A stretch of 64,000 nt of DNA from Escherichia coli (GTDB lineage Bacteria; Pseudomonadota; Gammaproteobacteria; Enterobacterales; Enterobacteriaceae): NCBI RefSeq assembly GCF_003019035.1, contig NZ_CP027448.1. One strand, 5' to 3'. Position 1 is the stretch's first letter. Each line of letters starts with the position of its first letter. Below, in pieces: positions 31,682-50,270 of this stretch. Under the pieces are notes generated by a model. It ran no database searches. It saw only the letters and a list, made by a program, of their open reading frames with translations, and had not been told where the DNA came from. Position numbers and translations under genes: made by a program.

Positions 31682-32539
31682 TCAGGGAGAAGCTGTGGCC
31701 AGCCGGCTGTAATTACGGTTACGTGACAGAATCATGCGCTCTTTCACACGACGCTCCACTTCGCGTTTTACCGCCTCACGATTGGCAGTGAAGCGCCCTT
31801 CCGAGATTTCACGCGTCAGCTGCCGTTTCACCAGGGTGACGATATCCTGACGTTCCCTGTTCGCATCACGACGCGCACGGGCACGCTTTATTCCACGGGA
31901 CTTAAGCTCTGTCTGGTAACTGCGGAAATGCTCACGCACAAAACGCCAGGCTTTCGCTATCAGTTCATCCATACCCAGGGTATCCAGTCCCTGCTTTTTG
32001 CGCTGTCTGTTTTCCCATTCAACACGACTGCGGCGCGCAGCAACCACTGCATCCTCAGACACATCAAGGGCGGCAAATAGCGCCGGTGTGAACGTGATAT
32101 TGGTCGGAATGTAGCACCCGATAAGCGGATCATATTCCGTCTGGTAGGTAATCAGTCCCAGCTCTGCAAGGAACGTCAAGGCTCGGGTGGCCCGGGTGAT
32201 GGAGAGTTTTCCGGCAGCAGACTCCGTCGCCAGTCCGCACTCAATGGCCAGCGTAGTGATGGAGCACTGGACGCGGTTGGCCAGCGGGTCATAGTGAAAA
32301 CACAGCCCCTGCAGCAGCGCATCAATAGCCCGGCGACGCAGTACCGGTGGCATGCGCCGACGCAGTCCCTTCGAACGGGCATGTGCCACATGAATGGCGA
32401 AATCAAAACGGGAGGTGAAGTCCACCGCCTTTTCCATCAGTTTTTCGCAGAACTTCAGCGTTCCGGCACCTTCACGGGGTGTGAATACCGGATTCGGGTT
32501 CTTTACCTGGCGGTAATACGTTTGTTGAAGATCAGTCAC
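31682..32539 (-). CDS. repA1: RepA1 replication initiator (IncFII/RepFIIA)
   Basis: Protein matches R100/R1 RepA1 as recalled ([39 protein letters not shown]...[14 protein letters not shown]); GTG start at 32539 overlaps the tap stop. The ORF track extends to 32551. Confidence 0.9.
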
Positions 32540-32606
32540 ACCATCCTGCACTTACAATGCGCAGAAGGAGTGAGCACAGAAAGAAGTCTTGAACTTTTCC
32601 GGGCAT
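32532..32606 (-). CDS. tap: tap leader peptide (translational coupling to repA1)
   Basis: Manual translation gives the 24-aa peptide [24 protein letters not shown], with its stop overlapping the repA1 GTG. Confidence 0.8.
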
Positions 32607-32623: not shown

Positions 32624-32708
32624 ATAGCTGAATTGTTGGCTATACGGTTTTTAGATGGCCCCGGTAATCTTTCATGTCGCCAAACTTGAAGAAGATTATC
32701 GGGGTTTT
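32624..32708 (+). ncRNA. copA: CopA antisense RNA (copy-number control), approximate ends
   Basis: Antisense to the repA1 leader upstream of tap; ends in a 14-bp stem (CCCCGGUAAUCUUU...GAAGAUUAUCGGGG) plus UUUU. Confidence 0.55.
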
Positions 32709-32838
32709 CACTTTTCTGGCTCCTGTAAATCCACATCAGAACCGGTTCCCTGCCACCTTATGGCGTGGCCAGCCACAAAATTCCTTAAACGATCAGCAAT
32801 CTATCACTCACGCCTGAGATAAGCAATAATGTGAATAT

Positions 32839-37802: not shown

Positions 37803-40800
37803 TCAGTCTCCGCCCAGGGTTTTCTCTTTCTGCAGGTCACGAACCATATCCCGCTCCATCTGCTGCAGACGCTCCTGCAGCAGATTTTCCCGGGCAACCT
37901 CCCGGACCGCTTCCCGCTCCCGTTGTGATTCACGCAGCACACTATCCGGCAGCGCGGCTTCCCGTTCAGTTATGGCAGCCCGGTCACGCTCCTGCCCGGC
38001 AATTTCCCTGACAGCCAGCTCTGTTTTGCCATCCGGCAGGTCAGGTTTGTTCTCTGCCATTTTACGGACAATTTCATCTGCGCGGCGTTCCGTTTCACGG
38101 CGGATGGCCTCTTCAGCCTGCCTCTGTGCCAGCACCTCTGCCGTGACCGGTTCGCCATTTCCGGCTCCCGGCTGGACGCTGTTGTCCGGGATATCCCCCC
38201 ACACGCGGCCACCGGTTATGGCACCGGGATTCCACGGACGGCCTTCACCGGCGATTCTTACCACCACACCACTGTCAGGATTATCACGGGCAATCCGGAC
38301 ACCATCCTGCATATTATCAGCCAGCAGGCTTTCTCCGTTACGGCTGCCCTGCAGGGCCACAAACTGTGCATCTTCACTGCCCTTCACCCGGCCTTCACCA
38401 CTGAATCCCCGCAGCCCGTTTCCGTCATCCGTGGTCAGCGGGTTCAGCCAGATACCGGCAGACTTGCCGTTACGGTCAAAAGCCGGCAGTGCCACATACG
38501 GCTGTGGGTATTTGCGCCCCGGAGCAATAAACCGTGCAGGACTGTCTCCCCCGGCCAGCCCCGCCTGACGAAGAACGGCTCGGCCTGCCGCCACGTCCCG
38601 CAGCTCCCGCGCCGTACTGAACAGCCGCTCTGCATTCATGACCTCCCGGTCCGATTTCGGCTCAAACACATCGTGGGCAGTTCCTTTCTGTTCGGCATTG
38701 TTAATGGCATCCGTCCAGCCCTGACGGTTATCGGTGTACACCTGCACATGCTGCTTCATACGCGACAGGGCCACGTAGGCTGACTCAAAGCCGGCCATCT
38801 GTTTCCGGCTGCCTTCCGTGCCTTCAAGCGCAATGGCAAAGGTTTCACTTGCCCCCTGCGCACCGTGGGCGGTGATGGCATAGGCCAGGTCAATATGTTG
38901 CTCTGCCCGCTCCTGACCGGGGCGAATCACCCGGGTCTGCTGTCCGCCCGACAGCGTGACACTGTCACCGGAAACCGCTGTCACCGTCCAGACGCTGTTG
39001 GCCACATAGCCGCGCTCCCGGTCACTCTTCGTGAAGCGCATCCGGTCACCGGTCCCCACCCGGATGGTGTCCGGGGTGTACAGTGTGACACCTTCAGCCA
39101 CCGCCTCCCGGGGCGAAATCAGCCGCGTGTTACCTTCCGCATCCTGCAGGGTTATCAGCCCGTCACCCTTACTGATACCGGCAATCCGGTGATACACATT
39201 ATCCACCAGGACAAGTGCGTCCCGATGTGTCTCCCAGGTGGAGAGACGACGCAACTCCCCGTCGCGTATATTCGCTGTGTTCAGGACAGGCACCATGACC
39301 TGCTCTTTCCCCAGCTCACCGGCCTTTTCCCGTGCATCATGAATCATGCTGTTCAGTACGCGCCGGTCCTCATTCAGGTGCGTGACAATAAGCGTCTGCT
39401 CCCGTGCTTCCGGCGTCCTGCCGGTATAGTCGCGGACAATGGCTTCATACAGTGTCATGGGGACATCCGGAAAAGCCTCGCCGTTCTGCATCGCCTTCTG
39501 CTGCGCTTCTGCCAGTTTCGCTTCCTGGCTGTGACTGAACTCCGTCACAGAGTGCTCCGGTACCCATGCGCCCTCCTGACGTGGCACCTGAGACGGTTTC
39601 ACACTCTCAAGCCCGGACAATGCCCTTTCCACATCCCGGTTAATCAGGCTGTATACCGCCTCCCGCAGTTCCGGCGTCTGACGCACAATCTCCTTCATGA
39701 TGGCCACATCGGCAGCGCTGCGCGTCTGCTGGAGACGGAAAGGCTGACCGGGCGCGATGGCCTGCAGCTGGTCCGTGTCACCGCTGGCCACTGCACGACC
39801 ACCACCGGCCGCAATCAGGGCATATGCCCGTGCCATGTCGGTATTGCCCACCATTGAGCTCTCATCGAGCAGGAACAGCGTGTTGCTGAAATCCGGCGTT
39901 TCTCCGCTGCGCAGCTGCAGCTGCGTGCCATGCAGAAAGGACGCCAGTGTCTGTGCATCCACGCCGGCGCTGCGCATCTCCCCGACCGCACGGTGCGTGG
40001 GCCCCAGCCCCACGACACGGGGACGCTCACTCTCCGGCAGCATGTTCACGGCTGACATCACCGCCCGGAACTGTGTGGTCTTACCCACACCGGCATAGCC
40101 CTGCACCACCGTGAAACGGTCGGACGTTTCCAGTATCATGCGGGTGGCGGCACGCTGTCCTGATGTCAGACTCTCCATGACTCCGCCAGGGACTCTCTCC
40201 ATCAGCGGCGTGACCGCCTCCTTACCTTCGAGAATATGGCGAAGAATGCTCTTTTCTGCCTCATACGACGCACGGGAAACCAGCAGGCCTGTGCCATAGC
40301 CTTTTGCCACATCCACATACAGTAAATCACCGCGTTTTATCTGCGCATTGATTTCCCCTCCCAGTTCAGTAAAACTGGTTCCTTCTGCAGCAAACGACTT
40401 CGCCTCTGTCAGCAGGTCCACCATGCTGAAGGCCAGGTTTTTACTTTCCAGCACAGGAAGGGCCAGATGAATGGCCTGCTGTGCCGGCGTGTGAAGCCCG
40501 GCTTTCTGCAGACTGATAGCGGTTTCCAGCAATGTCTCACCGGCACGCGCCTTTATCTGCTCAGAAACCACCGTAAAGGAGGGATGGCGGGCAAGGTTTT
40601 CCGCCGTACGGGTTTCATCCAGCGAGGAATACAGCCGGACATCACGACCGCTGCGGGCCAGACCGTTCAGGGTGGCGTTGTCCATTGCCATCTGTGTGAC
40701 GGAGGCAAAAACCTTCGCACTGTCGCTGACGGAATGCCCGGGCGTTTCCACCCAGCCGTTCTCCAGCTTCAGTGCCGTGAACGGTGAATCGCTCACAGGC

Positions 40801-43073
40801 AGGGAGGCCGGTTCAGCCCGCCCCGGCACAACAACCGTCATCGAATCTTCACTGACGGATGCCACCTGCAGGCGGTCACCGCCGGAGACGCGGAGTCCGG
40901 GAATTTTCCCTGTCACCCTCAGACGCTCGCCGTCTGCCACCGGCATTTTTTCCGGCCGGAACAGCGACCAGCTGCTGTCCAGGGAGGAAATACGCACCAC
41001 CTGCGTTTCGCCCTGCGCATCCCGCAGGGTCAGGCTGTGACTCTGCGCCGTCACCCGATCGATAACATAGAGGTCATGACTGCGTGTCTCCGGGTTCCAC
41101 TGCTCCATCACCATCCCCGGACGGTACATATCCCGCAGATAACGGCTCCGGCTGTCCAGCCAGACCGGTGACAGAGCGGTCATGGTCACCTCCGGGTGTC
41201 CGAGCACGCCCTGTGTTTTCAGCTCACTGCGAACGGCCTGTGTCAGTATGGCCTGTTCCCGTACCCCGCTGACCTGTGCCACGCTCTCTTCTCCGGCTTT
41301 CACGCTGGCCGCAAAATCTCCGGCCAGCCGGGCATAGCGGACATTACGGTCCGGTTCACTGATGATGGTGGCCGGTCGCTGTTCTCCCCCCTGCCAGCGA
41401 TATGTGTTCACCCCGGCATCTTTCATGGCCATCAGTGCACTGCCTGTACCGGTTCGCTGCCCGCTGTCGGTTATCAGGACCTGTACGTTATGACGTGCGG
41501 CACCGTCCAGCAGGGTTAACGTCTCTTTCAGGGAGAGTTTTTCGCCCTGGTCAACGATAACAGTACTGCCCAGCGTGAAGGCCATGCCTTCCAGCAGCTG
41601 ACGACGTCCGGTTATCAGCTCACCGGACAGCCGTTCATCCTGCTTCAGGTTCATCTGCGAGCGACGGTCAGCAGCGATAATCTGCACTTCCCGCCCCTGC
41701 TCCCGGGCCATCATGACCAGTTCAGCCACCCGCTCACGCTGCCCGGCTGCACCGCCCTGCCCGGACACAATGGCCAGCGACGGACGGTCCTGTGCCAGAA
41801 CACTGACGGCATCGCTGTAGCCGGCCGTCCGGGGGACACTTTTCTCCGGATGTACGGTCACCCGGTTCTGTTTCATGATATCGCGACTGAGTGCCCGGAC
41901 TGACAGTTCATCGAGCACATGAATCCCGGACGTGAACAGCCCCTTCTCACGGTCAAGGGGGATGAGTTGCTCACGGCTGATGGCCTCATCGATACCGGCG
42001 CGTGCCCGTTCAATCACACCATTTTCCGGCGGCAGTATACCGACCGTTCTGGCCAGCACGTCCGTGTACGTAAACTGCACTTTTCGTTCACTTAATCCGG
42101 CAATCGCCTGTGTCACCGCCTGCTGCACATCCGGCCCCTCCTGTGAAACAGCCCCGGGCGCCTGCGTGCGGGTCTCCGCACGCTGATCCGCCGCGTCACG
42201 ATATGCCCGGATGTCGAACCCGGTTTCCTTCAGCGTCTGCATCCATTCAGCCATTCTGACTTCAGGATCGACGTGCTGTTTGGATTTTCGCGTATCCAGT
42301 GCCGCCACATCCCGGGATTTCAGCGAGGCGTCCTCCCCGACGGCCTCCCGGATAGTCTGCGAGCGTCCAGAAAAGGCCTCCACCGGTATGCCCAGCATTT
42401 CCCACATACCGTGCTGACCCACCACTTCGGTTTCATAGCCCAGCGCCTCAACCTGCTCTTTCAGTTTTTCCCGGTAGAGCCTGCCAAAGGCAATCTGATT
42501 AGCGTACACATTCTCAATGAACCCCGTTTTCCCCACTTTGTCACTGCTCAGTGTCTTCCATTCGCCGTTATGCTGCGTGACATTAGCCACCACCGCATGC
42601 GTGTGTAACTGTGGTTCCTGATCGCGACTGGTGTCGTGGTTAAACAGTGCCATCACCAGATTACCGGTCAGCACCGTTTCTGACTGTCCGTCCGTCATCA
42701 CCCGTGTGGAGGCCAGCGCCTCCACCTGACGGACAGCAAAATCCACGGCCTGGTTATGTGCTTCAATAAGACGTTTGTCCCCCCCGAGCATGGCCATCAT
42801 GGAGACACTTTTGGGAGCGGAAAAGGTCAGGTCGTAGCCGGGACGATGCCTGTTACGGCCATCCTGCATGCGGCTTAAATCCGCCCCGTCTGGCAACCTG
42901 CCCTCCAGAAGGCGGGTAAAGACATCCTTATCGACACTGCCCTGCAGCCCCAGTTGTTCAGCCCCCTGGCCGGCCCAGCGTTCTCCCATGCTGCCCAGCA
43001 CATAGTAATTATCCTTGTCGGTATAATAGTTCCCGGCACTTCCGGCCGATCTGACCTGCGCAATACTCATCAT
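37803..43073 (-). CDS. traI: TraI relaxase/helicase
   Basis: About 1756-aa protein; N-terminal relaxase (MMSIAQVRSAGSAGNYYTDKDNYY...) plus helicase domains; the track start at 43094 adds 7 residues. Confidence 0.95.
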   Translation of the reverse strand: MMSIAQVRSAGSAGNYYTDKDNYYVLGSMGERWAGQGAEQLGLQGSVDKDVFTRLLEGRLPDGADLSRMQDGRNRHRPGYDLTFSAPKSVSMMAMLGGDKRLIEAHNQAVDFAVRQVEALASTRVMTDGQSETVLTGNLVMALFNHDTSRDQEPQLHTHAVVANVTQHNGEWKTLSSDKVGKTGFIENVYANQIAFGRLYREKLKEQVEALGYETEVVGQHGMWEMLGIPVEAFSGRSQTIREAVGEDASLKSRDVAALDTRKSKQHVDPEVRMAEWMQTLKETGFDIRAYRDAADQRAETRTQAPGAVSQEGPDVQQAVTQAIAGLSERKVQFTYTDVLARTVGILPPENGVIERARAGIDEAISREQLIPLDREKGLFTSGIHVLDELSVRALSRDIMKQNRVTVHPEKSVPRTAGYSDAVSVLAQDRPSLAIVSGQGGAAGQRERVAELVMMAREQGREVQIIAADRRSQMNLKQDERLSGELITGRRQLLEGMAFTLGSTVIVDQGEKLSLKETLTLLDGAARHNVQVLITDSGQRTGTGSALMAMKDAGVNTYRWQGGEQRPATIISEPDRNVRYARLAGDFAASVKAGEESVAQVSGVREQAILTQAVRSELKTQGVLGHPEVTMTALSPVWLDSRSRYLRDMYRPGMVMEQWNPETRSHDLYVIDRVTAQSHSLTLRDAQGETQVVRISSLDSSWSLFRPEKMPVADGERLRVTGKIPGLRVSGGDRLQVASVSEDSMTVVVPGRAEPASLPVSDSPFTALKLENGWVETPGHSVSDSAKVFASVTQMAMDNATLNGLARSGRDVRLYSSLDETRTAENLARHPSFTVVSEQIKARAGETLLETAISLQKAGLHTPAQQAIHLALPVLESKNLAFSMVDLLTEAKSFAAEGTSFTELGGEINAQIKRGDLLYVDVAKGYGTGLLVSRASYEAEKSILRHILEGKEAVTPLMERVPGGVMESLTSGQRAATRMILETSDRFTVVQGYAGVGKTTQFRAVMSAVNMLPESERPRVVGLGPTHRAVGEMRSAGVDAQTLASFLHGTQLQLRSGETPDFSNTLFLLDESSMVGNTDMARAYALIAAGGGRAVASGDTDQLQAIAPGQPFRLQQTRSAADVAIMKEIVRQTPELREAVYSLINRDVERALSGLESVKPSQVPRQEGAWVPEHSVTEFSHSQEAKLAEAQQKAMQNGEAFPDVPMTLYEAIVRDYTGRTPEAREQTLIVTHLNEDRRVLNSMIHDAREKAGELGKEQVMVPVLNTANIRDGELRRLSTWETHRDALVLVDNVYHRIAGISKGDGLITLQDAEGNTRLISPREAVAEGVTLYTPDTIRVGTGDRMRFTKSDRERGYVANSVWTVTAVSGDSVTLSGGQQTRVIRPGQERAEQHIDLAYAITAHGAQGASETFAIALEGTEGSRKQMAGFESAYVALSRMKQHVQVYTDNRQGWTDAINNAEQKGTAHDVFEPKSDREVMNAERLFSTARELRDVAAGRAVLRQAGLAGGDSPARFIAPGRKYPQPYVALPAFDRNGKSAGIWLNPLTTDDGNGLRGFSGEGRVKGSEDAQFVALQGSRNGESLLADNMQDGVRIARDNPDSGVVVRIAGEGRPWNPGAITGGRVWGDIPDNSVQPGAGNGEPVTAEVLAQRQAEEAIRRETERRADEIVRKMAENKPDLPDGKTELAVREIAGQERDRAAITEREAALPDSVLRESQREREAVREVARENLLQERLQQMERDMVRDLQKEKTLGGD

Positions 43074-43154
43074 AAACGTATATCCCTTTGACATATCCCG
43101 GCATCAATCCCACAATGGATATACACAAGACATATCCACATAAGGAGGCAAATA

Positions 43155-43382
43155 ATGGAAACCACCGTATTTCTCAGCAACCGCAGCCAGGCGGTCAGAC
43201 TGCCAAAAGCGGTTGCATTGCCGGAAAACGTAAAACGCGTTGAAGTGATTGCTGTCGGACGAACCCGAATCATTACGCCTGCCGGAGAGACATGGGACGA
43301 ATGGTTCGACGGAAACAGTGTCAGCGCTGATTTTATGGATAACAGGGAACAGCCTGGTATGCAGGAAAGGGAGTCATTCTGA
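43155..43382 (+). CDS. vapB: VapB antitoxin (AbrB/SpoVT-type)
   Basis: 75-aa protein (METTVFLSNRSQAVRLPKAVALPENVKRVEVIAVGRTRIITP...); AAGGAGG RBS; overlaps vapC by ATGA. Confidence 0.8.
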   Translation: METTVFLSNRSQAVRLPKAVALPENVKRVEVIAVGRTRIITPAGETWDEWFDGNSVSADFMDNREQPGMQERESF

Positions 43383-43780
43383 TGCTGAAGTTTATGCTCA
43401 ATACCAACATCTGCATTTTTACGATAAAGAACAAACCCGCCAGTGTCAGGGAACGTTTTAACCTGAACCAGGGGAGAATGTGCATCAGTTCGGTCACTCT
43501 GATGGAGCTGATATATGGTGCAGAAAAAAGCCAGATGCCTGAACGTAATCTCGCTGTGATCGAGGGATTTGTTTCCCGCATTGACGTTCTGGATTACGAC
43601 GCTGCTGCTGCCACACACACCGGCCAGATAAGAGCAGAACTTGCCCGTCAGGGACGCCCTGTCGGGCCATTTGATCAAATGATCGCAGGTCATGCCCGCA
43701 GTCGGGGACTGATTATTGTGACTAATAACACCCGGGAATTTGAACGTGTGGGCGGCCTGAGAATTGAAGACTGGAGTTGA
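43382..43780 (+). CDS. vapC: VapC PIN-domain toxin
   Basis: 132-aa PIN-domain protein (MLKFMLNTNICIF...LMELIYGAEKS...IIVTNNTREF) immediately after vapB. Confidence 0.85.
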   Translation: MLKFMLNTNICIFTIKNKPASVRERFNLNQGRMCISSVTLMELIYGAEKSQMPERNLAVIEGFVSRIDVLDYDAAAATHTGQIRAELARQGRPVGPFDQMIAGHARSRGLIIVTNNTREFERVGGLRIEDWS

Positions 43781-43788
43781 CCTGTTCA

Positions 43789-45942
43789 TCAGAAATCATC
43801 TCCCGGCTCAACATCCTCCCCGCGCTCCCGGTGCACATTAATGTTCACCTCTTCACGACGCTGCATCTGCTGCTGGATGTCCGGATGATTTTCCTGTTGC
43901 CATGCCTCATAAGCGGCCATATCCACCACTTCACCGGATTCACTGATCCCGGGTGGCAGTTGCTGTTCCATCTCTTCTTCCGGTTTCATTTTCAGCTCCT
44001 GCTCGATCCCCCCTACCGGAACATTCACACCTGAATCTGACTTCTTATCGTTGATGGCAGGAGACACCGGCTGTTGCGGCTGTTCAGCCTGAGTCACGTC
44101 TTCTCCGGAAACAACCTCCGGGACATCCGGTTCGAAGAGGCTGGCCATCTGACGACCTTCTGCTTCCCTTGCGGCAAGTACGGCACTCAGACGGTTCTCC
44201 ATTTCCGGGTTGATGTCACGCGGAATAAACTCCGGAGCGACCTTCGGTCGTGTCTGATATTTCAGAGAGAGTTTTACTGCCGGATACGGTCCGGGCAGGG
44301 TGACATAACAGGTCAGATCCGGCAGAGACTGAATGTCGGAATAACTGACCAGCGTCTGGCGCTCCATATCCTTACCGGTCGATACCCCGTCACGTACCGG
44401 ATCAGCACCGTAGGAATACTGCTCGCTGGCTTTCAGGTGCTCTTTCTCACCAATTTCACCGGCAGCGAACTCTGCAATCTTATGGCTGGGAGAACGGAAA
44501 AAGGCACGGGTGTTCATGACGTCAAACAGCGAGGCAGCCGCTTTCTCACCGTAGATATCTTCCAGCTGGGCATAGGACTGGATACCAAACACATAACAGC
44601 CACCGAACTTACGGGCTTCCGGCAGGATCTCCACCAGGTCCGGCAGTTTGTGTAACGTGGGTAACTCATCACAGAAAAACCACACACGACGGTTACGGTT
44701 TTCTCCCATTGCCAGCAGACCACGAATGGCAATGGACAGCCACATGGAGATCACCGGCTTCAGGGAGGCATGGGTGTCGGCATTCGACGAAATAAACAGC
44801 CAGCCGTTTTTCTGATCTTCCCGGACACCACGCATCCAGTCACGGATGGTAAAAGACTCACCGTTATGCTCAATCCCCTGCAGGTAACGGATGGCTTTCA
44901 CGTAGTTGGTCAGCACAGCACGGATGGAAATCGCCGTTTTCTCAATTTTCTCTTCCACCAGGTTGGCCGCCGGTGAATTACGCAGGAAGGTACGCAGTTT
45001 TTCGATTTTGATGGAAAGCAGTGTGTCCACCAGTTTGCTGTAGCTGCGGTTGGGGTCATTACGCATCAGGTACGCCGCTTCCGCAAAAATGGTACGTCCT
45101 GACCCCTGCCAGAACGGGTCCTCTTTTGTGCCCATCGGGATCAGCGTGTTCGCGGTATTATCAAAATCCGGCTGTGTCAGGCACTCCTTCCACAAATCCC
45201 AGGCGGCACAGCGGGCATCCAGCGGATTCAGGATTTTATCGATGGAGGGATCATAGTAACTTTTAACAAATTCCCCTGAACGGTCATAAATCACCACCAT
45301 ATCTCCACGCTGACGGGCGTAGTTGGCCAGACGACGGATAACTTCCGACTTACCGGCCCCGACCGTGCCGTGCAGACAGAAGTTCTGGATTTCGGAATCC
45401 CGGATAATCGGCAGGTCGCCAATCCGTATATCGGAGTCCTTGCCGTCTTTTTTCAGCATCCGGGCAACGTCTTTCGGATTGTCTGTCAGCTGACGACCAC
45501 CTGTGACTTCATTTTCGCTCTGTTGTTTACCCTGACGCCCCAGAATCCAGGAGACAACAAAGAAGGTAATCAGGCAAATAACCAGTGCCACAACTGTGGC
45601 CAGAACGAATGCGGACCATAGCTGCTCTCCGCACCAGATCATATATTTATCATGCAGTACCTGAGCAGCATTCATCCGGAAGGTTTTGCCGTAATACTGG
45701 ATCTCATATACCGGCTGGGACTTGATTAAATCCCGCATGCCTTCCAGCGTGGTACACCACCAGTAAATACAGCCGTTCACAAACGTCTGCCAGCTTATTT
45801 TTACCCATAAAACCAGACCAACGAGTATCCAGAAAAAAATAAACAGGCAGTAAAGCATGATATTGGCGATCTGGCTGAACATGCGGATACGCATGGACGC
45901 AATCTGACCGCCCTGGGTCATATCCTTTGCGTTAAAACTCAT
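43789..45942 (-). CDS. traD: TraD type IV coupling protein
   Basis: 717-aa ATPase with N-terminal TM segments and Walker A (GTVGAGKS); Q/P/E-rich C-terminal tail typical of F TraD. Confidence 0.95.
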
Positions 45943-47448: not shown

Positions 47449-50270
47449 AATGGCCCCTTCAGTCGTTCCTTTTTACCATCAATCATTTTTTTCACAGCCT
47501 CTCCTGATGGCTCAGGTATTATCTTTTGACTTTCTCGCTCTTCATTATATTTATTATTCTGAGATAATGCTTCTGTTTTATGGTGATTCTGCAGTTCAGA
47601 ATACTGTCCTCTTACAATATTTTCCTCGCCATGTATGCTGTTCTGAGTATCACCTATATTCCCTTTATATTCTGTGACCATATTATCAACCTGATGTTTT
47701 ACATCATTACGGATATTACTGTCCTGTGTTCTTTGATCAATAATGGCCTGATGCCCCTGATGGTCAGCAATAATATTCTGGCTGCCACCACCCGAAGGTA
47801 CGCTCTCCATTCCTTTACCAATATCGCCACGGGATTCACGCCAGGCATTATCAACACCAGGTTGTACCTGTTCTTGCACAAAAGACCATGCCATCGCCCG
47901 ACGGCGTTCTGCAATCTCCGGTGAACTGGTGTTTGTCAGAATAGCTTCTGCATACTGCGGCGCGTGTTTCATCACATACTGTGCAAACTGTTGCGACAGG
48001 TCTTCACTCATCTGCCCACTCATGCTTTCAGTACGGGATGCCATTTCAGCATATTCATGGCTGCGGGTCATATTCGTCGTGTACTGGTCGTAACTCTGTT
48101 TCGCTGAGTTCAGGGCTGCAGACAACTGGTCCACGCGGGAATCGGCATTATTGTCAGTATGGCTTCCGGATTCACTGACTTTGCGACTGGTAAAGTAATC
48201 GCTGGCCTCTTTAAAGTCCTTACTGGCTCTAGCGTCAATATCATGGCGAGCATCATGGGAAGCCCTGCTGCCACTACTGGCTTCATGTGAGTCCAGATCA
48301 CTACCGTCAATACTGGCTCGCCCACCAACCTTAGCGCCAACATCAACACGCACACCAAAAAGGCTGGGCTTTGCATCTAATCCGGCATGAGCATCACCAT
48401 ACAATCCAGCTGATGCAGTCGTACTTCTCGATGCCAGTTCTCTTGTCGCCTGCTCATTACTGATATTATGCGCCTTCGCATAGCTTTCCACTGCACTGCG
48501 CATACGGCTGGCCATCATGGAGTCCTGAGCACTCATCGTGCTGTCAGCACCACCGGTGACAGAATCACTGCTCCCCCGGTTAGAACCAAACTGACTGAGC
48601 GTGTTCCAGGCACTGGCAATACTGCTGCTGAACCCATGCAGGGCACTTTCTGCTCTGTTCGATGCTTCCCGGGCCATTTCCTGTTGTGCCGCCGCAATCT
48701 GACGCGTTGCATTGATGCCGACCGGTAACCGGGACATCGCTCCGCTTGCATCCATCACCATATTACCATCACGGGTCTGTGTGGCGGTTGCGCCACTGCC
48801 GGTCTGGTACATCATCTGACCAAACGACGTGGTGCTGTTGGTGCTCCAGCTGAAGCCGTTCACGTTCTCCGTCTGCATGTTGCCGTAGGAGTAATTACCG
48901 TCAACCACACTGCCTGCTGCACTGGCGGTCGGGCTGATAGCAGAGGAAGCGAAATGGCTGTACACACTGGAAAATCCTGCCCCGAGCCCCCTGACCATCA
49001 TCCAGGATAATGGCGGGATCATCATGGAAAGATACCCGGCAGTGGAAGCCAGATCGGAGTATTTCAGCTGTATCTGTGAAATTTCCGAGAGCACCACCGG
49101 TGCACCATTCTGCTTCGCATAAAATGTCATGGCGCTGTTCAGAATGGCGTACAACATTGGCCATGACTGCAACCACATCAGGGCAAACACATAGCCTTTC
49201 AGGACGGACAGCGTCAGTTTGTTGAAGACAGCCGCCAGTACCAGGAGCGGGAAAATACCGATGGCGATCCCCGTCAGGATGGTCTGCGTCATGGGCAGTG
49301 TCCGCATCGCCACATGACCGATGGAGACATGTGCCAGACGTTGCTTCTCCATCGATGATGTGGTGGCCAGATTCACCAGGCTGGCCGAATCACCATTACG
49401 TGCGGCATAACTGGTGATCCCCTCCTTCAGCGCATTGATGGTGACATTCTGGCGGATGATCTGGCTGGCTGATTTACTTGAGCCATAGAAGTAACTGTAA
49501 CTGTCGCCAATCAGCGTACTGAACAACAGGTTCGGATCAGGGCGTCCACCAAATAGCTGCTGGGCATAATAATGCCATGTTTTTCCGCCACTCTGTGTGT
49601 CCAGATTCAGCTTGTCTTTCAGCGAAACCGACGCGTCCTTACAGGTCACGAAATTATTATTGCTGTCATAAACGCCCCGCAGCGGACTGGGGCGGGAAAA
49701 AATCAGCGTGTAAGGATCAGCGGAGGCCATCAGTTCCTCCAGCGTGTATTTGTGGTTCAGGTAAATATCCCCCATCACGCAGTTCTGCACATAATCCTGG
49801 AAAAGATTGGCGATTTCCGGATTACGGGACAAAAAGTCGGTGCTTTTTGATACCAGTTCTGCGCCAAACAGCATCCCCGTTTTGCTGTAGGTGACACTGT
49901 CCGGTTGCGTGAAGATCATCTCGTAACTGGCCACCATTGCATGCCCGATACGGGTCGTCAGTGAAAGTGGCATCGCCAGTCCGACCGGCACATTATCCAC
50001 CCGGTGAATTTTGACCAGGTCACTGTTATCAATAATCTGCACCGATGTGCGGACATTAACCAGCAGGCTGATAAGCACAAACACGGCCACCCAGCCCAGC
50101 AAATCCATCACGTTGTGCCGCTGTACCCACATTACGGCCACCGCTAGAACAGACAATGTGAGCGCAATTTTTTCAATGGAATCCCACGTCCGGGTCCCCA
50201 TAAAGGCGGCAATGGCATTCAGGTTATTCCGCAACCACTCACCACCGGCAATCACATAAACTTCATTCAC
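47445..50270 (-). CDS. traG: TraG (pilus assembly / mating-pair stabilisation)
   Basis: 941-aa polytopic protein of F TraG size, between traH and traS. Confidence 0.9.
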   Translation of the reverse strand: MNEVYVIAGGEWLRNNLNAIAAFMGTRTWDSIEKIALTLSVLAVAVMWVQRHNVMDLLGWVAVFVLISLLVNVRTSVQIIDNSDLVKIHRVDNVPVGLAMPLSLTTRIGHAMVASYEMIFTQPDSVTYSKTGMLFGAELVSKSTDFLSRNPEIANLFQDYVQNCVMGDIYLNHKYTLEELMASADPYTLIFSRPSPLRGVYDSNNNFVTCKDASVSLKDKLNLDTQSGGKTWHYYAQQLFGGRPDPNLLFSTLIGDSYSYFYGSSKSASQIIRQNVTINALKEGITSYAARNGDSASLVNLATTSSMEKQRLAHVSIGHVAMRTLPMTQTILTGIAIGIFPLLVLAAVFNKLTLSVLKGYVFALMWLQSWPMLYAILNSAMTFYAKQNGAPVVLSEISQIQLKYSDLASTAGYLSMMIPPLSWMMVRGLGAGFSSVYSHFASSAISPTASAAGSVVDGNYSYGNMQTENVNGFSWSTNSTTSFGQMMYQTGSGATATQTRDGNMVMDASGAMSRLPVGINATRQIAAAQQEMAREASNRAESALHGFSSSIASAWNTLSQFGSNRGSSDSVTGGADSTMSAQDSMMASRMRSAVESYAKAHNISNEQATRELASRSTTASAGLYGDAHAGLDAKPSLFGVRVDVGAKVGGRASIDGSDLDSHEASSGSRASHDARHDIDARASKDFKEASDYFTSRKVSESGSHTDNNADSRVDQLSAALNSAKQSYDQYTTNMTRSHEYAEMASRTESMSGQMSEDLSQQFAQYVMKHAPQYAEAILTNTSSPEIAERRRAMAWSFVQEQVQPGVDNAWRESRGDIGKGMESVPSGGGSQNIIADHQGHQAIIDQRTQDSNIRNDVKHQVDNMVTEYKGNIGDTQNSIHGEENIVRGQYSELQNHHKTEALSQNNKYNEERESQKIIPEPSGEAVKKMIDGKKERLKGPL

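Follow-up and report, generated by a model that had tools for sequence, protein, structure and literature searches.

The stretch analysed here (the window) comprises 64,000 nucleotides (nt) of Escherichia coli DNA (assembly GCF_003019035.1, contig NZ_CP027448.1) and carries, between the conjugation genes traD and traI, a vapB-vapC toxin-antitoxin (TA) cassette that is read against the transfer (tra) operon and that is covered over its entire length, on the opposite strand, by an open reading frame (ORF) known as trbH. The explanation that accounts best for the available data, and that we regard as moderately probable, is that the locus represents the canonical traD-traI module of the F plasmid, with a toxin that has been disarmed in this particular copy and with trbH acting as a bridge between the two flanking genes. 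As to the bridge itself, the chances seem to us about even that trbH is not a protein gene but a translational bridge maintained by selection, with the synonymous codons of vapC and vapB being constrained to keep its frame open. The location of the cassette has already been published (PMC4285173), its presence between traD and traI is the known, canonical arrangement of the F plasmid, and both the trbH ORF and its overlap with vapBC are likewise already known.

In the window, trbH (43070..43789, minus strand) was recognized from the ORF list and from an exact-sequence look-up as a frame of 239 codons, antisense to all of vapBC and joined to its neighbours at both ends. Its ATG (43789-43787) shares the A with the TGA stop codon of traD (43791-43789), forming the sequence TGATG at 43791-43787, and its own TGA stop (43072-43070) lies inside the ATGATG with which traI begins (43073-43068). 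A Shine-Dalgarno sequence, GGGAG, is located on the same strand within the 3' end of traD (43800..43804), 10 nt before the trbH ATG, and in cassette-free plasmids the same sequence serves traI. The vapBC/trbH segment measures 716 bp and is coding on both strands. The look-up, performed with the versions from plasmid pSTEC316 and from Shigella, returned records named "TrbH", "IncF plasmid conjugative transfer protein TrbH" and "TrbH homolog [Shigella flexneri]", and the trbH of F, also of 239 codons and differing from that of the window by 3 nt, is the same ORF. The vapBC2 pair of the Salmonella plasmid pSLT has been described as "encoded within the trbH gene" (PMC5065971), and a 2025 preprint presents trbH as an antisense transcript "whose function remains unknown"; a search of the literature for traD/traI translational coupling or for a role of trbH yielded nothing beyond that statement.

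The main clue for the function of trbH comes from the comparison of cassettes embedded between traD and traI in different plasmids. The copies examined were the F type, the pSLT type, that of Salmonella Minnesota, an E. coli variant with 95% identity, and two each from Enterobacter, Pantoea and Serratia. In all of them the antisense frame is open from the upstream stop codon to the traI start, with a length of 239, 250, 256 or 267 codons, the start codon either overlapping the upstream stop or sitting 1 nt after it (TGATG, TAATG or TGAaATG) and the TGA overlapping the traI ATG. Full coupling at both start and stop was found in the F type, the pSLT type (87% nt identity), Enterobacter, Pantoea and S. 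marcescens (about 73% nt identity or less), and it persists through differing junction sequences and through a frame-preserving 36-nt indel in the leader. The complete anatomy of a relay, that is, both overlaps together with an upstream Shine-Dalgarno sequence, is present in the window and recurs in four other lineages. In S. proteamaculans (L097, 1380-2865), a 226-aa N-terminal fragment of MobF/TraI stands between traD and the cassette, and the ATG of the antisense ORF lies 1 nt after the stop codon of this fragment.

Controls were obtained by scanning 100,044 species genomes plus extra plasmids. The frame is open in all five deep traD/traI lineages and in only 1 of 11 enterobacterial copies found outside operon interiors, the remaining 10 having stops (Fisher p = 0.0014, hand calculation). 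Among about 80 copies not located between traD and traI, the antisense frame over vapBC is free of stops in five; of these, two have a high GC content and the other three are antisense beside F-type transfer genes, either downstream of traF (L031 and L062) or at the end of the tra operon after traX (L010). Copies at operon ends have 0, 1 and 3 antisense stops. The closest relatives outside tra regions, the E. coli chromosomal vapBC copies between purC and ypfJ (L014 and L015, 2274-2899; VapC 90% identical), have 2 and 4 stops, and a copy in the traT-traD gap, where there is no coupling, keeps its frame open over only 100 codons. In a neighbour-joining tree the embedded copies, which lack stops, are mixed with sister copies from other positions, which have 1-6 stops.

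The significance of an open frame depends on how easily it could be closed. Because the trbH frame is codon-aligned antisense in vapC, only TTA, CTA and TCA codons of the toxin gene break it, and its vapB part depends on a few codon-boundary dinucleotides, corresponding to about 1-3 sensitive positions. Of the distinct Leu/Ser codon states of vapC, 0/52 were of this forbidden kind in the embedded copies and 13/71 in the non-tra Enterobacterales copies (Fisher p = 6e-4). The G+C content at third codon positions (GC3) of the embedded vapBC genes is 0.45-0.60, as in the non-tra homologues, and lies below that of their own tra genes (0.61-0.77), which makes non-tra codon usage a fair null and means that a general tra-like codon bias does not explain the avoidance of stops. 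Under this null the probability of an open frame is about 0.015-0.03 per lineage; for a single sequence the overall chance is about 0.005-0.03, with the 81-nt leader alone being open in 0.15 of shuffles. The codon usage of the tra genes was also considered as a null and set aside as too generous, since the GC3 of vapBC is well below that of traD/traI, although it is kept as a caveat.

A few further copies of the cassette are worth describing in their own right. In Pantoea stewartii (L031), Erwinia typographi (L062) and Enterobacter sp. 10-1 (L027), at about 2170-2960 of the respective loci, a related vapBC is antisense in an F-type transfer cluster, where it comes after traN-traF and before the gene of a small membrane protein and trbB. 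The antisense frame has 0, 0 and 1 stops, respectively, and in L062 its end overlaps the following gene as ATGA; no clean start coupling was found in these traF-downstream copies and a bridge is not claimed for them. In Pantoea agglomerans (L013, 2805-3257) the vapC stop codon has been lost, so that the annotated protein has 150 aa and runs 46 nt into the convergent traD, and the trbH-like frame is still open. Related vapBC genes occupy the traT-traD gap in plasmid B of E. coli C5 (L095) and in Citrobacter sp. TSA-1 (L098); the latter copy is unannotated, has a vapC with an internal stop and adjoins a yefM-yoeB pair. The chromosomal copies of E. coli (L014 and L015), the closest non-plasmid relatives, lie on the same strand as their neighbours.

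The TrbH product behaves very differently from its frame. It has no Pfam or NCBIfam match, is rich in Cys and His, and retains 72% identity where VapC retains 95.5%, and about 50% where VapC retains 81-83%; between the F and pSLT types the divergence is 28% for TrbH vs 4.5% for VapC, that is, about 5-6 times faster. This free drift, together with the lack of a family match, argues that it is the openness and coupling of the frame that are conserved, not the product, and the TrbH polypeptide is probably a by-product. A truncated TrbH of 200 aa is on record for the small virulence plasmid of Salmonella Choleraesuis (pSCV50), which is presumably non-conjugative, and it would fit decay of the frame after loss of transfer.

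In the model we propose, vapBC would have lodged between a coupled traD and traI, and selection would then have kept the antisense strand stop-free. Ribosomes finishing traD would re-initiate on trbH by means of the Shine-Dalgarno sequence that drives traI in cassette-free plasmids, translate trbH across the antisense of vapBC (716 nt) and finally hand over to traI. Such translation would shield the C-rich RNA from Rho-dependent polarity and from loss of coupling, preserving relaxase expression. The RNA of the tra strand has a C/G ratio of 1.12 over the cassette, with local windows near 2, as compared with 0.75-0.84 in traD and traI. We incline, by a little, towards the view that a relay of ribosomes from traD to trbH to traI would operate in this way, preventing either the attraction of Rho or uncoupling.

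The cassette itself is formed by vapB (43155..43382, plus strand; 75 aa), encoding an antitoxin with an AbrB/MazE-type DNA-binding N-terminus, and vapC (43382..43780, plus strand; 132 aa), encoding a toxin of the PIN-domain tRNA(fMet) endonuclease family, both being assigned from the ORF list and family matches. The earlier note on this DNA, made from the sequence alone, had described a complete vapB-vapC pair at the traD-traI junction, transcribed against the tra operon and provided with a strong ribosome-binding site and an ATGA overlap. The pair and its orientation are borne out by the reading frames, the family matches and the position of traD and traI on the minus strand, and so is the ribosome-binding site, since AAGGAGG is found at 43142..43148 (plus strand), 6 nt 5' of the vapB ATG. 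The overlap has to be corrected to TGATG (43380-43384), where the vapB stop and the vapC start share one A (1 nt). VapB matches the NCBIfam model TA_anti_VapB (E = 1.1e-32, 112 bits for a cutoff of 60) and also Pfam MazE_antitoxin, and VapC matches NCBIfam NF010285, "tRNA(fMet)-specific endonuclease VapC" (E = 7e-87, 288 bits for a cutoff of 143), and Pfam PIN (PF01850; E = 3.3e-19), these matches being far beyond chance. VapB is 100% identical to PDB 9H6A_B and corresponds to the S. sonnei/F-type allele, with Ala58, and VapC shares 130/132 residues with PDB 6SD6_C, two being different.

The module is also designated mvpAT, vagCD or stbORF1/2. In this family VapC cleaves initiator tRNA, and VapB, besides neutralizing VapC, represses the promoter at two operators; degradation of VapB by Lon then results in the killing of plasmid-free cells (PMC8923223). 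Homologues stabilize the Shigella pINV and Salmonella pSLT plasmids (PMC8923223, PMC5065971). By homology, the VapB of the window would be a labile DNA-binding antitoxin, autorepressing at two operators, and its VapC a PIN-domain nuclease cutting initiator tRNA. Two of the features that delimit the enteric tRNA(fMet)-specific VapC (MvpT) subfamily are evident, namely the PIN toxin and an overlapping upstream antitoxin gene with an AbrB/SpoVT-type domain. The third, a set of four acidic active-site residues, is incomplete, because E42, D98 and E119 are present but residue 7 is Asn. VapC is a member of the subfamily by descent, but probably not an active nuclease.

The change affects codon 7 of vapC (43400..43402, plus strand), which reads AAT (Asn) instead of GAT (Asp) owing to a G>A substitution at 43400 that is private to the window, and the toxin begins MLKFMLNTN where its relatives have MLKFMLDTN. 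The Asp7 codon is intact in F and in the nearest plasmid, pSTEC316, which has a G at this position; D7N is absent from all PLSDB records (best protein identity 99.2%) and from all complete E. coli genomes (best identity 99.9%), and the D7-E42-D98-E119 tetrad is kept in 87 of the 90 homologues examined. The same residue, N7, is found in PDB 5ED0, which we take to be an engineered active-site mutant crystallized without the antitoxin. The four residues constitute the active site of VapC, and the D7A mutant is routinely used as a nonfunctional control (PMC8923223). A substitution at a catalytic residue, shared with PDB 5ED0, indicates that the toxin of the window is probably inactive, a conclusion in which our confidence is high. 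The pair noted earlier is therefore complete in its reading frames but probably not in its function. The claim that it adds an addiction function to the transfer region is true of the family, given the pINV and pSLT homologues, but is rendered doubtful in this copy by D7N. Addiction has probably been lost here, with VapB and the operator remaining, and a cassette with an inactive toxin would serve only as an antitoxin/repressor unit, conferring for example immunity to related vapBC modules.

With regard to its origin, the cassette had been regarded as inserted at the traD-traI junction, for which a comparison with F and R100 had been put forward as a check. In F (NC_002483.1), vapC (91966-92364) and vapB (92364-92591), both on the complementary strand, lie between traD and traI, and only 3 differences separate F from the window over 821 nt spanning both junctions, VapB being identical. 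R100, in turn, is an empty site devoid of vapBC and trbH, where the traD stop and the traI start overlap by 1 nt as TGATG, so that trbH is ruled out as an R100 gene. Other empty sites read ..GGGAGATGATTTCTGATGATGAGT.., and that of plasmid locus L004 is GCCGGGAGATGATTTCTGATGATGAGT. In all, the cassette was found in 1,172 PLSDB plasmids, out of 3,985 that possess this traD 3' end (~29%), and in 767 of 5,426 complete E. coli genomes, with records labelled vapB/vapC by the Prokaryotic Genome Annotation Pipeline (PGAP); 1,088 of the 1,172 carrier plasmids are typed as conjugative. In F-like plasmids of Salmonella, Enterobacter and Pantoea, the divergence of the cassette is roughly in step with that of its neighbours: identity to the window is 95%, 83% and 82%, respectively, for VapC, 86%, 72% and 75% for TraD, and 88%, 75% and 73% for the TraI N-terminus. 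For the Serratia loci, which share the same junction, the comparison covered the cassette proteins. The identity of the F junctions, together with the shared position and divergence across genera, leads to the view that, as far as these sequence comparisons go, vapBC has long belonged to the plasmid backbone as a polymorphic module and represents the standard state of the F lineage, which goes against the idea of an insertion in this plasmid.

Some traces of how the module reached its position may still be visible. Its flanks consist of short direct repeats of the junction itself, TGATGA in F and the 14 nt TGATGATGAGCATT in Serratia marcescens pE53; in the latter plasmid (L096, 1380-2160) a 14-nt copy of the true traI start (TGATGATGAGCATT) is found at the left junction, which shows that the point of entry of the cassette was precisely the coupled junction. 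A transposon-like insertion was rejected, as there are no terminal inverted repeats and the flanks show nothing but these short direct repeats.

The interpretation of trbH as a bridge must be weighed against the view that it is a passive "shadow ORF", kept open by chance, by the codon bias of vapBC and by shared ancestry, with no role in the tra operon. This view, which we consider somewhat unlikely, draws on the small number of ways in which the frame can be broken, and on the fact that with tra-like codon usage the coding part would be open with a probability of ~0.2 and retained with one of 0.4-0.8 per lineage. It does not agree, however, with a codon composition of the embedded vapBC that matches the non-tra homologues and not the tra genes, with the 1-6 stops of sister copies outside operon interiors, with a non-coding leader (27-39 codons; P ~0.15 when shuffled) that is also open through a 36-nt indel, or with the start/stop coupling kept in five lineages that differ in junction sequence. 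Conservation of the frame for the sake of its product, a functional F transfer protein, appears very unlikely: many records do annotate a "conjugative transfer protein TrbH", and the Shine-Dalgarno sequence and start codon are good, but the protein has no family match, diverges ~5-6 times faster than VapC, varies between 239 and 267 codons with unrelated ends, has the Cys/His-rich composition expected from antisense translation, and is absent from R100 and from ~70% of F-like plasmids. The bridge reading has its own difficulties. That trbH is translated and acts on TraI is deduced from the comparative pattern; the lineages compared are not fully independent; under a tra-like codon null the open coding part would be unsurprising (0.4-0.8 per lineage); and the copies downstream of traF have an open frame, except for one (L027) with a stop, but no clean start coupling. 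Moreover, traI can be transcribed from a promoter independent of TraJ, RfaH keeps polarity in the tra operon in check, and F trbH::kan mutants, in work attributed to Maneewannakul and Ippen-Ihler (1993), reportedly transfer normally, all of which would lessen the need for a bridge.

The two other components of our reading, the canonical module and the disarmed toxin, have rivals as well. If vapBC had been recently inserted into the tra operon of this plasmid, it would have added addiction and perturbed traI through convergent or antisense transcription. The presence of the cassette in some close relatives and its absence from others, with clean empty sites in R100 and in L004/L006, its occurrence in only ~29% of the plasmids with this traD 3' end and the short direct repeats at its flanks would suit such an event, but it is largely refuted by the identical junctions of F, and the same junction is found in Salmonella, Enterobacter, Pantoea and Serratia, with a divergence like that of traD/traI in the first three; most carriers are typed as conjugative, and the toxin of this copy has D7N. 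Taken together, we judge a recent insertion to be extremely unlikely. With respect to the toxin, the disarmed state carries the caveats that D7N could leave residual activity or that the A at 43400 could be a sequencing error, in which case the cassette would be a fully working addiction module. D7N is indeed a single-base singleton, not seen in the 1,172 plasmids or the 767 genomes, and Asn is isosteric with Asp. However, Asp7 belongs to a set of four invariant catalytic residues, its replacement by Ala (D7A) abolishes function (PMC8923223), and the D-E-D-E set is kept in 87/90 homologues. On these grounds a toxic VapC-N7, or an error, seems unlikely to us. The D7N sequence is also that of PDB 5ED0, where the free toxin was crystallized, something that was presumably possible only because the mutant is non-toxic.

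The genes on either side of the cassette are traD (43789..45942, minus strand), which encodes the coupling protein of 717 aa and is annotated as such in >1,000 records, and traI (37803..43073, minus strand), encoding the relaxase/helicase, which starts with MMSIAQVRSAG at the ATGATG at 43073; the start at 43094 given by the ORF finder was discarded as an upstream extension, PGAP using the equivalent of 43073 in relatives. The nearest plasmid, pSTEC316, has the F TraD protein accession WP_000009350.1. The traD stop codon lies at 43789-43791, and the stops of vapC and traD are convergent and 8 nt apart. A promoter and terminator scan covering 42600-44300 detected no terminator between these two stops and, on the tra strand, a single weak promoter-like site (43449..43421; 9/12 matches), no better than chance, and did not confirm a traI promoter within the cassette.

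For vapBC, a promoter-like site, TTGACA-17 nt-CACAAT, is located at 43088..43116 (plus strand), based on consensus matching only (10/12 positions), 15 nt from the traI start codon of the opposite strand; four promoter-like sites were seen in the region, for 1.4 expected. Around it, a repeat search revealed a 24-nt direct repeat (43075-98 and 43114-37) and the inverted arms GTATATCC../..GGATATAC and TGGATAT/ATATCCA, motifs that are kept in six lineages. Since VapBC occupies two operator sites of its own promoter (PMC8923223), the repeats at 43075..43138 are likely to be the two putative vapO sites. This region overlaps the weak Shine-Dalgarno-like sequence of traI, AAGGGA (43083..43088, minus strand; 9 nt 5' of the ATG), whose place is taken in the Enterobacter, Pantoea and Serratia versions by a better sequence, GGGAG, within a leader that is 36 nt longer. 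With the vapBC promoter and operators abutting the Shine-Dalgarno sequence and start of traI, binding of the VapBC repressor could also influence traI. The antisense interplay with traI expression suggested in the earlier note is plausible, vapBC being antisense within the operon, but the tra strand is occupied there by a conserved coupled ORF and not by an untranslated spacer. The coupling of trbH to both traD and traI makes it appear that the imagined conflict of expression was accommodated long ago by the trbH frame.

Elsewhere in the window, the Rfam family AS-traG (RF02874) was detected at 49466-49551 (plus strand; 62.1 bits for a gathering score of 58), antisense to traG, as a second element directed against the tra operon. 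The CopA antisense RNA (RF00042, 97.8 bits) was found at 32624-32713 (plus strand), beside an ORF (31682-32551, minus strand) in the position of an IncFII repA, which implies that the window includes the replicon in addition to the distal part of the tra operon.

The traD-vapBC-traI layout as such is ordinary, and annotation pipelines already label the cassette. What the comparative evidence adds is that trbH, an ORF listed for 30 years as of "function unknown", becomes a testable hypothesis. If the bridge is real, an operon would be shaping the codon usage of genes on the opposite strand for no other purpose than an open frame. The locus also illustrates how an essential operon can accommodate a mobile TA cassette and stay intact, which bears on the way stability and transfer are both retained by IncF plasmids of resistance and virulence. 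The natural active-site change D7N shows in addition that VapC activity should not be assumed when stability functions are counted or when this copy is taken as a vapBC reference.

Among known systems, the mvpAT module of Shigella pINV/pMYSH6000 (structures 3TND, 6SD6 and 9H6A) has ~97% nt identity to the window, the same operator/promoter repeats and a position between remnants of traD and traI with trbH intact, and VapB Ala58 and VapC Arg32 correspond to the S. sonnei allele. In pINV, however, the tra operon has decayed, traD being cut by an insertion sequence, and the module is the main stability determinant (PMC8923223), whereas in the window tra appears intact and the toxin has D7N. The vapBC2 (vagCD) of Salmonella pSLT shares the traD/traI position, the trbH coupling and a VapC with 95% identity, and aids the stability of pSLT (PMC5065971), but differs in having 87% nt identity and a TrbH only 72% identical. 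AS-traG resembles vapBC in being transcribed against the tra operon, but is a small RNA and not a TA pair matched by an ORF on the sense strand. The artA element of F is likewise anti-oriented in the F-like tra operon and is a small RNA or small ORF, unlike a TA pair.

The traD-trbH-traI region of F is like that of the window in gene content, gene order, junction sequences and its trbH of 239 codons, and differs in VapC, which has Asp7, Val43 and Leu89 where the window has Asn7, Leu43 and Arg89; the L43V and R89L changes of F VapC (F locus 5967-6365) are missing from the window, pSTEC316 and Shigella alike. F-like plasmids of the R100/R1 type have homologous traD and traI genes and the GGGAG...TGATGATG junction that is duplicated at both ends of the cassette, but no vapBC or trbH, the traD stop overlapping the traI start directly. 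As for the proposed relay, we know of no described case of an antisense relay ORF of such length. The likeness is to translationally coupled overlapping genes, in which termination and reinitiation take place at TGATG or ATGA, and to Rho-dependent polarity in long operons, and it lies in the overlaps at both ends of trbH and in the passage of ribosomes that these would permit. The difference is that here the relay would run for 239-267 codons on the strand opposite two genuine genes and, as proposed, would have a dispensable product.

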